Source: Dehalococcoidia bacterium (GTDB lineage Bacteria; Chloroflexota; Dehalococcoidia; DSTF01; JACRBR01). Taken from it: a DNA stretch of 64,000 nucleotides. Position numbers and translations under genes: made by a program. This document shows positions 34,880 through 63,156 of the stretch, piece by piece. Position 1 is the first letter of the stretch. The number at the start of each line of letters is the position of its first letter. The stretch spans positions 1 through 64,000 of the forward strand of contig JBGQBE010000007.1 in the NCBI GenBank assembly GCA_041494685.1, in the 5' to 3' direction. The notes beneath the pieces were generated by a model. The model was not told where the DNA came from and did no database searches. It saw only the letters and a list, made by a program, of their open reading frames with translations.

Positions 34880-35452
34880 TCAGATCAGGCTCCCCACCTT
34901 CGGCTTGCCCTCGCCCGCTGAGCGGCGATGGTACGCCCCGTTCACCGTCGGCGCGGTCACCGTGGACGTGCCACCGCGCACCATGGCCACGCGACCCGTC
35001 CGCACCAGCTCCTTCAGCCCGAACGGCGTCAGCATCGACACCAGCGCGTCGATCTTGTCCTCCTGCCCCGTGGCCTCGACGACCAGCGAGTCAGCCGCCA
35101 CATCGACGATCTTGGCACGAAATATATCGACGATCTCGATCACGGCGCTGCGGTTCTCCTTCGTCGTGGCCACCTTGATCAGCGCCAGCTCGCGCGCCAC
35201 CACCTGCTCGTCCGTGACGTCGGTGATCTTCACCACCTCGATCACCTTGTAGAGCTGCTTCGTCACCTGTTCGATGTCGTGCGCCGCGCCGTCCACCGTG
35301 AACGTCATGCGCGACAGGCCCGGCACCTCGCTGTGTCCGACCGTCAGGCTCTCAATGTTGAAGGCGCGCTGGCGCCACTTGTTCGCGATCTTGTTGAGCA
35401 CGCCGGGCCGGTTCTCCACCAGCGCGACGATGGTGTGCAGTCGGCCGCTCAT
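34880..35452 (-). CDS. ilvN: Acetolactate synthase small regulatory subunit
   Basis: ACT domain VENRPGVL, FNIESLTVG, RELALIKV, ELVRTG. Confidence 0.95.
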   Translation of the reverse strand: MSGRLHTIVALVENRPGVLNKIANKWRQRAFNIESLTVGHSEVPGLSRMTFTVDGAAHDIEQVTKQLYKVIEVVKITDVTDEQVVARELALIKVATTKENRSAVIEIVDIFRAKIVDVAADSLVVEATGQEDKIDALVSMLTPFGLKELVRTGRVAMVRGGTSTVTAPTVNGAYHRRSAGEGKPKVGSLI

Positions 35453-37149
35453 CGCGCAAACTCCGGTCGCTCCACGCGCGGCTGGTCGATGGTGTCGCTC
35501 AGGCTGACGCCGGGAGGCATCATGGGATAGCAGTTCTCCACGTCCTGCACCTGGAAGTCGATGAGGACGGCGCCCGGGTGGTCCAGCGCCGCGCGGATCG
35601 CCGAATCAACCATGGCCTTGTCGCTGACGCGCATGCCGGCAATGCCCATCGCCTCCGCGATCTTCACGAAGTCGGGCTGGAACATGCGGACGGACTGCTT
35701 GTTCCCATCGTAGAACTGGTCCTGCCACTGCCGGACCATGCCCAGGTAGTTGTTGTTGATGATGGCGAACTTGATCGGCAGTTCGTACTCCGTGCAGAGC
35801 GCCAACTCCTCCATCGTCATCTGGAAGCCGCCGTCGCCGCAGAACGCCCACACCGTGTCGTGCGGCCGCGCGAACTGCACCCCGATCGCCGCCGGCACTT
35901 CGAACCCCATCGTGCCCAGACCACCCGACGTGACGAACGAGTACGGGTTGTCGCTCCAAAAGTATTGCGCCGCCCACATCTGGTGCTGGCCGACGCCCGT
36001 GGCGTAGTACGCCTTGGGCCCGGACATCTCGTAGATCTTCTTGATCACGTACTGCGGCAGGATCTTCTCGCTCTCCGGGATCGCGATTGACGGGTGCTTC
36101 TCGCGCATGTCCGCGATCCAGCGCCGCCACTCGTCGTGGCGCGCCGGCTGCACGTTCGGCAGCAACTGCTGCAGCACCGTGCGCACGTCGCCCACGATCG
36201 GCAGCAGCGTCTTCACGTTCTTGCCGATCTCCGCCGGGTCGATGTCGATGTGCACGATCTTCGCGTTCGGCGCGAAGTCCTTCAGGGACCCGGTCACGCG
36301 GTCGTCGAACCGCATCCCGATCGCCAGGATCAGGTCGGCCTCCTGGATCGCCATGTTGTTCCAGTACATGCCGTGCATGCCGGGCATGCCCTGATACAGC
36401 TCGTGCGAGCCCGGGAAGCCGCCCAGGCCCAGCAGCGTCGTGATCACCGGGATCTGGGCCTTCTCCGCCAGCTCCTTCAGCTCGTCCGCCGCGCGCGAGA
36501 TCACCACGCCGTGCCCCGCCAGGATCAGCGGCCGCTCCGCCTCCGCGATCATCGCGGCCGCCTTCTTCACCTGCTGCGGGTGCCCCGTCACCGTCGGCTG
36601 GTAGCCCGCCAGCGACACGTGGTCCGGGTACTCAAACTCGCACAGCGCCTGCTGCACGTCGCGCGGGATGTCCACCAGCACCGGGCCGGGCCGCCCCGTC
36701 GTGGCGATGTGGAACGCCTCCGCGATCGCCGGCGCGATGTCCTCGACATCGAGCACCAGCACGTTGTGCTTCGTGATCGGGATGGTGATGCCCGTGATGT
36801 CGGCCTCCTGGAAGCCGTCGCGGCCGAGCAGCCATGACACCACCTGGCCGGTGATGCACACCAGCGGCACGGAGTCCATCCATGCGTTGGCGATGCCCGT
36901 GACGAGGTTCGTCGCGCCGGGGCCGGACGTGGCCCAGCAGACGCCGGCCTTGCCGCTGACGCGCGCGTACGCGTCGGCGGCGTGCGCGGCGCCCTGCTCG
37001 TGCCGCACCAGCACGTGCTTGATGTCGGGGTATTTCTTCAGCGCGTCGTACATCGGGAGGTTCGCGCCGCCGGGGTAGCCGAAGATGATCTCGACTCCCT
37101 CCTTGCGCAGGCACTCCATGATGATTTCCGCGCCCTTGATCTTCGTCAT
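35449..37149 (-). CDS. ilvB: Acetolactate synthase large subunit
   Basis: FGYPGG, RHEQGA, TSGPGATN, RFDDRVTG, GDGGFQM, LGMVRQWQ; AGGAG RBS. Confidence 0.97.
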   Translation of the reverse strand: MTKIKGAEIIMECLRKEGVEIIFGYPGGANLPMYDALKKYPDIKHVLVRHEQGAAHAADAYARVSGKAGVCWATSGPGATNLVTGIANAWMDSVPLVCITGQVVSWLLGRDGFQEADITGITIPITKHNVLVLDVEDIAPAIAEAFHIATTGRPGPVLVDIPRDVQQALCEFEYPDHVSLAGYQPTVTGHPQQVKKAAAMIAEAERPLILAGHGVVISRAADELKELAEKAQIPVITTLLGLGGFPGSHELYQGMPGMHGMYWNNMAIQEADLILAIGMRFDDRVTGSLKDFAPNAKIVHIDIDPAEIGKNVKTLLPIVGDVRTVLQQLLPNVQPARHDEWRRWIADMREKHPSIAIPESEKILPQYVIKKIYEMSGPKAYYATGVGQHQMWAAQYFWSDNPYSFVTSGGLGTMGFEVPAAIGVQFARPHDTVWAFCGDGGFQMTMEELALCTEYELPIKFAIINNNYLGMVRQWQDQFYDGNKQSVRMFQPDFVKIAEAMGIAGMRVSDKAMVDSAIRAALDHPGAVLIDFQVQDVENCYPMMPPGVSLSDTIDQPRVERPEFAR

Positions 37150-37248
37150 TCTGCTTCTCCTGGCCTGCCCCGCGGCGCGGGGCTGCATCGTCGCCTTGTG
37201 TCCACTGGTGGTTTCGTCCCCTTCCGTCCGCGCGCGGATGAGGGGACG

Positions 37249-37410
37249 CTAAAGCGGGAGGCCCAGCAGCAGGTCAAGCGGAAGCAAGAGACCCGCCGCG
37301 GGAATCAGGGGACGTACTACGACGCGGCCGCGGCTAATCCGCCGGGCGCGGTCAGCCGGGGCCGGTTGGACCTCGGTGCGAGAAGCTGTGAAGTGTGCCA
37401 TCTGCTCCAT
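37249..37410 (-). CDS. Putative ilv-leu leader peptide (53 aa, Leu/Val/Ile-rich C-terminus)
   Basis: Ends VVVRPLIPAAGLLLPLDLLLGLPL; sits between the T-box terminator and ilvB; uses GTA, ATT, TTG and CTT codons. Second possible ATG at 37401. Confidence 0.6.
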   Translation of the reverse strand: MEQMAHFTASRTEVQPAPADRARRISRGRVVVRPLIPAAGLLLPLDLLLGLPL

Positions 37411-37424
37411 GTATGACGCCGCCA

Positions 37425-37660
37425 ACAAAAAAACCCGACCCAGCAAAGGGACGGGTTCATGGCCCGCGGTGCCACCCTTCTTCGTCCGCCGTGGCGGACG
37501 CTCTCGGAGCGCTTTAACGGTCGCGACCCGGCCGGGGCTATCCCTGAGGTTCACCCCGGCGGCTCCGCGCTGAGTTCGATCCGCACCTGCCACCGGCCTT
37601 CCACCAACGCCGGCTCGCTAAAGGCTGCGACTGGACCTACTACCGCGCTTCTCAGCCTGT
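37425..37660 (-). promoter_or_regulatory. T-box riboswitch, Leu (CUC) specifier, transcriptional type
   Basis: Minus strand: stem I with AGUA, AGCGA and GGUGGAA elements, specifier loop GAA-CUC-A (37572-37574), T-box AAGGGUGGCACCGCG, antiterminator partner CGUCCC, terminator with U7; upstream of the ilv-leu operon. Confidence 0.92.
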
Positions 37661-37668
37661 TGCGGGGG

Positions 37669-37697
37669 AGTATACAGAGACATGACCAGCCTGTCAA
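37669..37697 (-). promoter_or_regulatory. Sigma-70 promoter of the T-box/ilv-leu operon
   Basis: TTGACA-N17-TATACT. Confidence 0.85.
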
Positions 37698-37802
37698 AGC
37701 GGCAAGAATTCCGCCGTCTGGACAAGCCCGCTCGCCCCTTCCAAGCGGCAAGGCCGCGCTCGGGTGCGCGGCCCTGTCTTGTCCAGTCGATCTCCGGGCC
37801 CA

Positions 37803-61537: not shown

Positions 61538-63156
61538 GCCAGGCGCCCACCATGACTGCCGACGCGCACCTGAGCATTGAAGAAGGCACGTCCTTGCTCC
61601 ATCAACGCCCTTCGCTTTCGGTCCGCGGCCTGACGAAGCGATTCGGCGATCTCGTCGCGAATGACAGCGTCGACCTGGACATCTTCGGCGGAGAAGTCCA
61701 CGCGATCCTTGGGGAGAACGGCGCCGGCAAGAGCACGCTGATGAAGATGCTGTACGGATACTACAGCCCAACCTCCGGCACGATCAGCCGAGATGGTACG
61801 CCGATCCGCGTCCGCACGCCGCAGGACGCGCGGCGGCACGGCATCGGCATGGTCTTCCAGAACTTCACGCTTGTACCCGCGCTGACGGTGATCGAGAACA
61901 TCGCGCTCATGCTTCCCGAGCTGCCATTCCTCATACCGGTCGCGCAGCTCGAGCGTGAGATACGCGCCCTGTCTGATCGCTACAACTTCGGCATTGACCC
62001 TCGCGCGCACGTCCGTCAGCTCTCGCTCGGAGAGCAGCAGAAGGTCGAGATCCTGAAGCTGCTGATGGCGCGCGCGCAGACGTTGATCTTCGACGAGCCG
62101 ACCAGCGTGCTGGCGCCGCACGAGATCGACGAGCTGATGGACGTATTCCGGAAACTGCGCGCCGACGGCCTCGCCGTGCTCTTCATTACGCACAAGCTGC
62201 GCGAAGTGCTGGCGGTCGCCGACCGCATCACGGTGTTGCGGCGCGGCGTCGTCGTCGCGGCCATGCCTGCGGCGGGCGCCACCGAAGATTCGCTCGTCGC
62301 GGCGATGCTCGGCGAATCGAACGCCGACGAAGCGCGCTCGATGCCGCGCCGTGCCGCCTATCCCGTCGGCGCGGGAGACAGCGACGCGCCGCCCGCACTG
62401 GACATCCGTTCCGCCGACGTGCCCGACCCTGCCGGGCGCATGCATCTGTCCGCCATCTCACTGGCTTTGCGTCCGGGCGAGATCGTCGGCGTCGCCGGCG
62501 TTGCGGGCAACGGGCAGAAGGAGCTGGGCGAACTGATAGCGGGCCTGCGCCGCTGCCGCAGCGGATCGGTCAGCGTCTTCGGCGCGGACGCCACGCACTG
62601 GACGCCCTCGCGCTTGCTGGGGGCAGGCATCGGCTGCGTCCCCGAGGATCCGCTGCGACATGGCGCCGTGCCGTCGATGACCGTGCTCGAGAACATGATC
62701 CTGTCCGAGCGCAAGCGATTCTCCGGCCCTGCCGGACTATCGATCCACTGGCGGACGGCCCGCCGGGTGCTGGAGCACGCGCTGCAATCGTTCAACCTCA
62801 AGCTGCCGGCGTTCACGACGGCGGTCGGCGTCCTCTCAGGCGGCAACGTGCAGCGCATGGTGTTCGCGCGCGAACTGGCGCGCGCGCCGAAGATCCTGGT
62901 CAGCTATTACCCGACGCGCGGCATGGACGTCATGTCGGCAAACGCGGCACGCGAGGTGCTCCTGACGTACAGCGTGGGCGGTACGGCGGTCCTGCTTGTG
63001 TCCGAAGACCTGGACGAGCTCTTCGCGCTGAGCGACCGCATCATCGTCATGTACCTGGGCCGCGTGGTCGGCGCCTTCCGCCCGGACGAGGCGGACGCGC
63101 ACAGGATCGGCCGGCTCATGACCGGCGCGCTGGAGGACGGCAGTGGCGGCAGCTAA
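61534..63156 (+). CDS. ABC transporter ATP-binding protein, two ATPase domains (nucleoside/sugar CUT2 type)
   Basis: [46 protein letters not shown]. Confidence 0.93.

Follow-up and report, generated by a model that had tools for sequence, protein, structure and literature searches.

T-boxes and leader-peptide attenuators are usually presented as alternative sensors of amino-acid supply. The region upstream of ilvB in a 64,000-nt stretch of DNA from a Dehalococcoidia bacterium (assembly GCA_041494685.1, contig JBGQBE010000007.1, positions 1 to 64,000; hereafter the window) appears to stack the two: a Leu T-box is followed by a Leu- and Val-rich leader open reading frame (ORF), and, as judged from sequence alone, the operon is probably gated twice, first by uncharged tRNA and then by the speed of ribosomes on this mini-gene. 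The nearest known precedent is the B. subtilis anti-TRAP operon (rtpA/yczA), in whose leader T-box antitermination is followed by tRNA-dependent ribosome stalling that controls downstream translation (PMC10327191, citing Chen and Yanofsky 2003, 2004). The likeness lies in the order of parts, a T-box and then an ORF with codons for the same amino acid in one leader, with the tRNA sensed twice. The anti-TRAP leader ORF is said to have about 10 codons, three of them Trp, and a stop codon that reportedly overlaps the ribosome-binding site of the target. No such overlap is present here, where the stop (37251-37249) lies about 90 nt upstream of the ilvB Shine-Dalgarno (SD) sequence (37160-37153). 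The differences go further: Trp and a regulator gene there, Leu/Val and a biosynthetic operon here, where the ORF has about 50 codons, holds a covarying helix, ends about 100 nt before ilvB and is predicted to mask the ribosome-binding site over a long range.

Other described systems share single features with this leader. In ermC/cat translational attenuation, leader-ORF pairing masks the ribosome-binding site, and ribosome occupancy of the leader decides whether it opens; the ilvB site is likewise predicted to pair with leader-ORF sequence, but the signal here would be amino-acid supply rather than an antibiotic, and the window's family has its mask at a long distance from where ribosomes would presumably stall. 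The Salmonella mgtA leader combines a Mg2+ riboswitch with the proline-codon ORF mgtL and works through Rho-dependent termination. There too a riboswitch and a leader ORF in one 5' leader bring different signals to one gene, but the mgtA elements overlap, whereas those described here are sequential and separable. The enterobacterial leu leader also uses rare Leu codons. Leu/Val/Ile-rich ORFs upstream of ilvB or ilvD, with hairpin and poly-U terminators, are known or predicted in enterobacteria, S. aureus and Actinobacteria (PMC5794164, PMC1262725). With these classical attenuators (ivbL, ilvL, leuL; S. aureus ilvD; actinobacterial ilvB) the window leader shares a branched-chain-rich ORF and hairpins from the ORF end; they have a poly-U terminator with an overlapping antiterminator, whereas the two window hairpins (F and H, below) lack a U-tract and no conserved competing pairing was found for them, and none of the classical leaders is preceded by a T-box. 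Bacillota ilv-leu operons carry Leu T-boxes, often as tandem T-boxes or with a ykkC-type ('guanidine') riboswitch (PMC12452182). There, too, a Leu T-box upstream of ilvB and leuA is joined in series by a second sensor, but that sensor is another riboswitch, whereas here it would be a translated ORF. T-boxes are known in Chloroflexi (PMC3766115, PMC2494555). Full-text literature searches returned no T-box combined with a leader peptide on a branched-chain operon, or in Chloroflexota.

The leader opens with a promoter and the T-box; window coordinates are on the minus strand unless the plus strand is named.

37669..37697, minus strand: sigma-70-type promoter, TTGACA-17-TATACT (11 of 12 consensus matches; mean over 50 shuffles, 0.0 such sites)
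37444..37662, minus strand: Leu T-box leader, RF00230 (105 bits, above the gathering score of 93; E 9e-23; model positions 1-219)
37574-37572, minus strand: specifier CUC (Leu) in the loop GAA-CUC-A (codon then purine), read from the Rfam alignment
37477-37465, minus strand: T-box bulge sequence, part of the RF00230 match
37427..37457, minus strand: T-box terminator, AACCCGUCCC/GGGUCGGGUU, a 10-pair stem with one U.U mismatch and then U7 (37433-37427), read from the sequence

Membership in RF00230 is given by a score above gathering over the full length of the model, and the genome (3.29 Mb in 87 contigs) encodes the matching tRNA-Leu(GAG). The acceptor-binding bulge reads UGGC in the window and in 19 of 20 loci of the same family, and UGGU in sister families; all five full-length tRNA-Leu genes end in A-CCA, which gives UGG:CCA pairs and a C.A mismatch between the variable bulge base and position 73. 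ARAGORN also called a second tRNA-Leu(GAG) on G000 contig C10 (~61992-62065; 74 nt, without CCA or a long variable arm), probably a false call or a pseudogene. A simple terminator scan missed the T-box terminator because of the internal U.U mismatch, but its stem and U7, counted as the helix that competes with the antiterminator, are kept in the 20-locus alignment.

The comparison covered sequence upstream of ilvB from 40 relatives, of which 30 loci were fetched, and from 80 named loci in metagenome-assembled genomes (MAGs); the nearest public relatives are all uncultured MAGs labelled Chloroflexota, Dehalococcoidia or Chloroflexia. Every one of the 30 loci examined within the order yielded a T-box. 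The window's family has the sequence motif in 20 of 20 loci (19 of 19 without L011, whose genome is flagged unpublished), and the other four families of the order have Rfam matches in 10 of 10 loci at 65-122 bits. Because the motif lies 307-402 nt upstream of ilvB in every one of the 20 same-family loci, the long gap behind it is itself conserved. In the window about 280 nt separate the T-box terminator from ilvB, compared with 46, 54 and 143 nt to the start codon for the other T-boxes of the genome with downstream DNA available.

What occupies this gap? Inside it lies the leader ORF.

37249..37410, minus strand: leader ORF, 53 codons from ATG 37410, stop TAG 37251-37249
37252..37290, minus strand: Leu-rich tail, codons 38-50, nine Leu in 13 (CTC TTG CTT. 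CTT. CTG CTG CTG. CTC. CTT)
37315..37320, minus strand: two in-frame GTA codons (rare Val); the G, T and A of the first are invariant in all relatives examined (alignments A1 and A2)
37369..37374, minus strand: SD-like GAGGTC inside the ORF (codons Glu-Val); AGG invariant in alignments A1 and A2

To judge from the alignments, translation of the conserved frame would more probably begin at the second ATG (37401; 50 codons) than at 37410: relatives usually have a GGAG-like purine stretch 3-4 nt before their ATG, which favours 37401, and in the window GGAG at 37408-37405 precedes that codon. Counted from there, the ORF begins 26 nt past the T-box terminator. Among its final 24 residues are 10 Leu, 3 Val and 1 Ile, a run of codons for the products of the operon. 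Several codons of the leader are rare in the genome: over 703 long ORFs the shares within the codon family are 3.4% for CTT and 4.8% for TTG (Leu), 3.5% for GTA (Val) and 3.2% for ATT (Ile), and the leader contains CTT three times, TTG once, GTA twice and ATT twice. By wobble rules, five of the ten tail Leu codons (CTC, CTT) would be read by the specifier's own tRNA-Leu(GAG). In a near-identical strain, represented by one contig from run X3 at a depth of about 4, five differences fall in the Leu tail (37280-37300); two are synonymous third-position changes and three shift the Leu pattern, and on this single contig the tail is still Leu-rich. The ORF-internal SD-like GGAGG/GAGGT, invariant in relatives, lies 5-8 nt before a helix within the ORF (helix B, below) and has no start codon after it. 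A loose regular expression for the leader motif matched 31 sites in the whole genome, of which the ilvB leader alone is real; no second copy was found.

The case for a genuine ORF comes from its relatives. A frame test was anchored on the invariant GTA, independently of ORF calls, and counted a frame as kept if it had an ATG at least 20 codons upstream of GTA and stayed open to an end 75-125 nt before ilvB; in the 20 same-family loci this held for frame 0 in 20, for frame +1 in none and for frame +2 in one. The ATG is conserved, the length stays within 44-52 codons, and the ORF ends at a hairpin adjoining the stop. Across 51 leaders, which come from several families, are related, include some near-duplicates and are not independent, the position of the stop is kept and its identity varies (TAG 19, TAA 16, TGA 16). 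The same set contains 94 GTA triplets in frame against 5 and 12 in the other two frames, and GTA provides 36% of Val codons compared with 1.8% in ilvB of the same loci. Among Leu codons, CTT accounts for 17% in the leaders and 3.7% in their own ilvB, CTA for 7.1% and 1.8%. Of the 16 C-terminal residues 41% are Leu, a share that drops to 5-6% if these bases are translated in the other frames. We conclude from these comparisons that the leader ORF is real.

The original prediction for this locus, made from the letters of the stretch alone, agrees with these results on most points. It had named the promoter, a complete T-box with specifier CUC for Leu and a U7 terminator, and the 53-codon ORF at 37410-37249 whose closing 24 residues include 10 Leu, 3 Val and 1 Ile, and all of these are present. 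It took A/T-ending codons of this tail to be rare in the surrounding genes; genome-wide, CTT, TTG, GTA and ATT each make up 3-5% of their codon family. The two comparisons that it had proposed, a search with the Rfam T-box model and an alignment of relatives' leaders, gave the full-length match and a Leu/Val/Ile-rich ORF whose frame, start, length and stop position are kept in 20 of 20 same-family loci.

How would such an ORF act on ilvB? The elements that bear on this question lie near the two ends of the gap.

35449..37149, minus strand: ilvB, acetolactate synthase large subunit, start ATG 37149
37153..37160, minus strand: ilvB SD region, GGAGAAGC
37380..37386, minus strand: anti-SD segment GCTTCTC (ORF codons 6-8), a 7-nt complementary run to the ilvB SD

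The start of ilvB is placed at 37149 because the N-terminus is conserved across 30 orthologous loci. In the predicted fold of the window, GCTTCTC (37386-37380) pairs with GAGAAGC (37159-37153) with a pairing probability of 0.98 (ORF nt 18-20). Partition-function folding of 19 same-family leaders (L017 left out) placed the main partner of the SD at ORF nt 17-24 in 13, at a C/U patch at nt 86-108 in 4 and at neither in 2. The two strands vary together between loci, CTGCTCC occurring with GGAGCAG, GATGTTCC with GGAGCATC, and GCTCCCC with GGGGAGT. Cognate anti-SD:SD duplexes are predicted to be more stable, at -12.47 kcal/mol, than non-cognate ones, at -10.81 kcal/mol (n=26, permutation p = 0.0004, with inherited changes counted more than once; control window p = 0.22). 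An earlier version of this test with wide windows was weak (p = 0.03), the 26-locus version having used tighter ones. The SD is predicted to be unpaired with a probability of 0.21, compared with 0.40 when the upstream region is shuffled, and lies below the shuffle mean in 16 of 20 leaders; the window values are 0.14 and 0.31.

A sister group, whose peptides end in LLL(S/T)-stop, presents a simpler arrangement. In 10 such leaders the run that can pair with the ilvB SD, 6-10 nt long (7-10 nt in 9), falls within the final Leu codons. When these codons were masked in silico, SD accessibility rose from at most 0.08 to 0.40-0.55 in six of the seven sister leaders predicted to pair there, and from 0.27 to 0.82 in the seventh (L026). 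Since the terminal Leu codons are the anti-SD in this group, a ribosome stalled on them would uncover the ilvB start directly.

From these observations we propose a chain of two stages and an output. In the first, which follows from family membership, the Leu T-box would let transcription pass only when tRNA-Leu(GAG) is uncharged. In the second, a translated ORF of about 50 codons, with rare GTA, ATT, CTT and TTG codons and a Leu-rich tail ending at a strong hairpin, would sense branched-chain supply. As output, a long-range helix with codons 6-8 would hide the ilvB ribosome-binding site, such that IlvB is made only while ribosomes occupy the ORF: slow branched-chain decoding would leave ribosomes lingering on the ORF, perhaps in a queue, and hold the site open, and fast decoding would let the mask re-form. 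Rho could add polarity on untranslated ilvB message. In sister lineages the mask would lie elsewhere in the ORF, and in the group with terminal Leu codons a stalled ribosome may unmask directly. Taken whole, from a Leu T-box acting on transcription to a translated Leu/Val (perhaps Ile) sensing ORF that unmasks the ilvB ribosome-binding site, this chain seems to us an even call; we are more confident of the translated sensing ORF than that, and less confident of the output step.

Several observations weigh against this proposal. About 90-130 nt separate the Leu tail from the anti-SD upstream of it in the window's family, where in silico masking of the tail leaves the SD closed (window values 0.16 before, 0.15 after). 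The position of the mask differs between lineages, and at loci without a T-box the SD is predicted to be fairly free (0.16-0.64). Shuffling a GC-rich leader often leaves its SD paired as well (2 of 12 shuffles came out as low as the window), and the gap folded in its entirety shows no exceptional stability (z = -1.2). For the ORF itself, only 3 nt separate GGAG from the start codon at 37401, and there is no clear selection at the amino-acid level: the synonymous fraction is 0.183, compared with 0.136 and 0.164 for the two alternative frames, and variability is no higher at codon position 3. The related loci are not independent of one another. Parts of the stretch were found in 24 sequencing runs, one of them an RNA library (share 0.08), and the sole contig from that library, from a close relative, spans 37360-37589, across the T-box terminator and on into the ORF; it may be DNA carry-over and thus carries no information on expression.

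Because masking the tail leaves the SD closed in the window's family, the proposed link from stall to unmasking needs a ribosome queue or another step, and might be either a queue or plain ribosome traffic. We speculate that the ORF could even serve as a ruler for ribosome queues, as the stall codons are 3'-terminal and the anti-SD (codons 6-8) is close to the start: only four to five ribosomes in a column, held up by one stalled on Leu/Val codons, would extend back far enough to keep the ilvB site open. This is quite unlikely in our estimate. If it were true, the depth and duration of starvation would be turned into a graded translational output on top of a T-box that reads tRNA-Leu(GAG) only; bacterial ribosome queuing would act as a sensor, and the long, length-conserved ORF (44-52 codons) with a roadblock hairpin at its stop would be explained.

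Could the same sensing ORF act on transcription instead? Two hairpins lie between its stop codon and ilvB.

37215..37248, minus strand: hairpin F, CGTCCCCT..AGGGGACG, from the base after the stop, -19.6 kcal/mol, no U-tract after it
37167..37183, minus strand: hairpin H (GCCCCGC-GCC-GCGGGGC), just upstream of the ilvB SD, no U-tract after it

Under this reading hairpins F and H, together with Rho or a non-canonical terminator, would stop RNA polymerase upstream of ilvB or within it unless a ribosome stalls at the Leu/Val codons, in the manner of the tna operon or of the leader peptides without terminators proposed for Actinobacteria. We regard it as unlikely. The genome encodes Rho, and a strong hairpin adjoins the stop codon in all lineages: in 51 leaders, hairpins that begin within 0-9 nt of the stop codon's first base have a mean of -18.0 kcal/mol compared with -11.7 at 204 random ilvB anchors, and 76% of leaders against 32% of random anchors reach -15 kcal/mol or below (the loci are not independent). 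The stem sequence of hairpin F varies between lineages, and relatives also have a stem of different sequence at the position of hairpin H. In L110, a relative without a T-box, hairpin H is followed by TAGTTTTTGG (U5; 809-841) and was flagged as terminator-like, and hairpin H may be an intrinsic terminator in some lineages and not in others. For actinobacterial leader peptides without obvious terminators, candidate Rho sites have been proposed (PMC1262725).

No terminator-like site was found between the ORF and ilvB in the window (37249-37149), L082 or L092, however, and the composition shows no strong C-rich, G-poor stretch of the kind expected for Rho loading (over 60-nt windows, C 0.30-0.43 and G 0.27-0.38). 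Nor was any conserved pairing found that would compete with hairpin F or H, and inspection by eye of the leaders without a T-box revealed no convincing exclusive pairings of the classical 1:2/2:3/3:4 scheme. Given that no intrinsic terminator follows the ORF, and that the ilvB SD pairs with covarying ORF codons 6-8, we favour translational unmasking, with Rho-dependent termination as its rival.

A further reading accepts translation of the ORF and denies that it senses anything. The ORF would couple ilvB translation to ribosome traffic, or shield the leader from Rho or RNases, and the Leu tail would be a by-product of pyrimidine-rich, anti-SD-like sequence. In most lineages an anti-SD does lie inside the ORF, CUC and CUU codons are inherently anti-SD-like, and the failure of tail masking to free the SD in the window's family would be expected. 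The in-frame excess of GTA (94 against 5 and 12), CTT and CTA is nevertheless hard to explain without selection at the level of codons, and the short ORFs of lineages without a T-box are almost wholly Leu/Val runs. We hold this reading to be improbable.

We give equally little credence to the idea that structured RNA without coding function fills the gap, be it a second riboswitch or a leader bound by a protein, and that the open frame is incidental in a genome of 68% G+C. One argument for it is a helix within the ORF.

37325..37364, minus strand: helix B, covarying, inside the ORF (base CGGCC.CGG / CCG.GGCCG), from RNAalifold and a covariation test

In alignment A2, which comprises 35 of the 44 listed leaders, 91% of cells are paired in helix B, compared with 30-48% in slid controls; five of ten pairs changed on both sides, and none of 500 shuffles reached the observed covariation score. 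The compensating changes fall partly at second codon positions (Ala/Val paired with Gly/Asp), which implies that RNA pairing is selected there. On the 451-column alignment RNAalifold returned helix B alone, because the variable parts aligned poorly. Spurious long ORFs are also common in this genome, and the lack of clear purifying selection at the amino-acid level, which fits a leader peptide whose product is irrelevant, fits a non-coding RNA equally. Against this, a single frame is kept (20 of 20 loci, against 0 and 1 of 20), the in-frame ATG is conserved, the stop changes in identity and not in place, and the bias to Leu and to rare codons is specific to one frame. Lineages with short ORFs lack helix B, yet keep the ORF with its Leu/Val run, stop and hairpins. 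A search of 37100-37800 against Rfam at E <= 10 gave nothing credible besides the T-box, and the gap matches no family.

The original prediction had placed the second switch in the hairpin after the stop, through a repeated 8-mer.

37307..37314, minus strand: internal copy of CGTCCCCT, not conserved

That hairpin is present at 37248-37215, without a U-tract and at -19.6 kcal/mol, and the second copy of the 8-mer is indeed found at 37314-37307, but the mutually exclusive pairing is very improbable as a switch: the 3' arm AGGGGACG would pair with the post-stop CGTCCCCT or with the copy inside the ORF according to ribosome position, and although both 8-mers are in the window and the 8-mer arises in only 41 of 5000 shuffled ORFs, a complementary run of at least 7 Watson-Crick bases occurs in only 1 of 24 leaders of the same family type (the window itself), 6-nt runs in 7 others are scattered, and repeated 8-mers of any kind in the leader are at chance (1 against 1.26 expected). 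We set the two-copy switch aside as coincidental or private to this genome. Of the tandem control that the prediction had proposed, the stacking of T-box and ORF in one leader thus stands by comparison and the hairpin switch does not; its view that a second switch would need Rho or translational control is reasonable, since no U-tract follows the hairpin.

Distribution across lineages suggests that the two sensors are distinct units. Of the upstream regions, 89 are non-redundant; 20 of these lack a leader, with ilvD immediately before ilvB. In the 69 others ilvB heads the operon, and 56 of these carry both a T-box and a leader ORF; the count becomes 59 on adding three homologous ORFs below the cut-offs (L031 and L066, each one Leu/Val/Ile short, and L027, with a GTG start, recognized by eye). 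The same 69 include one T-box without a callable ORF (L049), seven ORFs without a T-box and two loci with neither. The seven (L082, L092, L100, L101, L105, L110, L115) gave no T-box in an Rfam search at E <= 0.01, and the first six have a leader ORF and hairpins F and H as in sister leaders that bear a T-box. Their ORFs end in runs very rich in Leu/Val, such as the L082 peptide, and a promoter-like site lies just upstream of the ORF in all three T-box-less loci scanned (L082, L110, L092). Because sister lineages without a T-box keep the same ORF and hairpins behind a promoter, we take the two sensors to be separate modules.

Why sense branched-chain supply twice? A second layer might filter basal read-through of the T-box, or add Val/Ile input via rare codons. 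An entire order of uncultured Chloroflexota from soil and sediment, with high G+C, has both sensors in tandem on its main branched-chain operon, and their separate occurrence in sister lineages offers a natural series on the contribution of each layer. If confirmed, masking of a ribosome-binding site from inside a long, structured ORF, with no terminator, would add to the range of designs known for ribosome-mediated attenuation. There is also a consequence for annotation: the T-box is all that gene callers and Rfam would report, and the conserved mini-gene would be missed.

Some further observations concern the same loci. Downstream of the leader the gene order is ilvB-ilvN-ilvC-leuA. In L092 (668-710) the ATG of the leader ORF lies about 10 nt past the -10 hexamer, and the leader mRNA may be leaderless or nearly so. 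L115 has a hairpin and T5 resembling a T-box terminator ahead of its leader ORF, which may be a decayed T-box or a different element. In L080, L084-L091, L094-L099 and others (20 regions; IlvB identity 62-68%), the 3' end of ilvD stands directly before ilvB, and any leader would lie further upstream. On the plus strand of the window, a terminator-like GC hairpin with a weak tail (CTGTCTTGTC) is found at 37752-37773, just upstream of the ilvB promoter.

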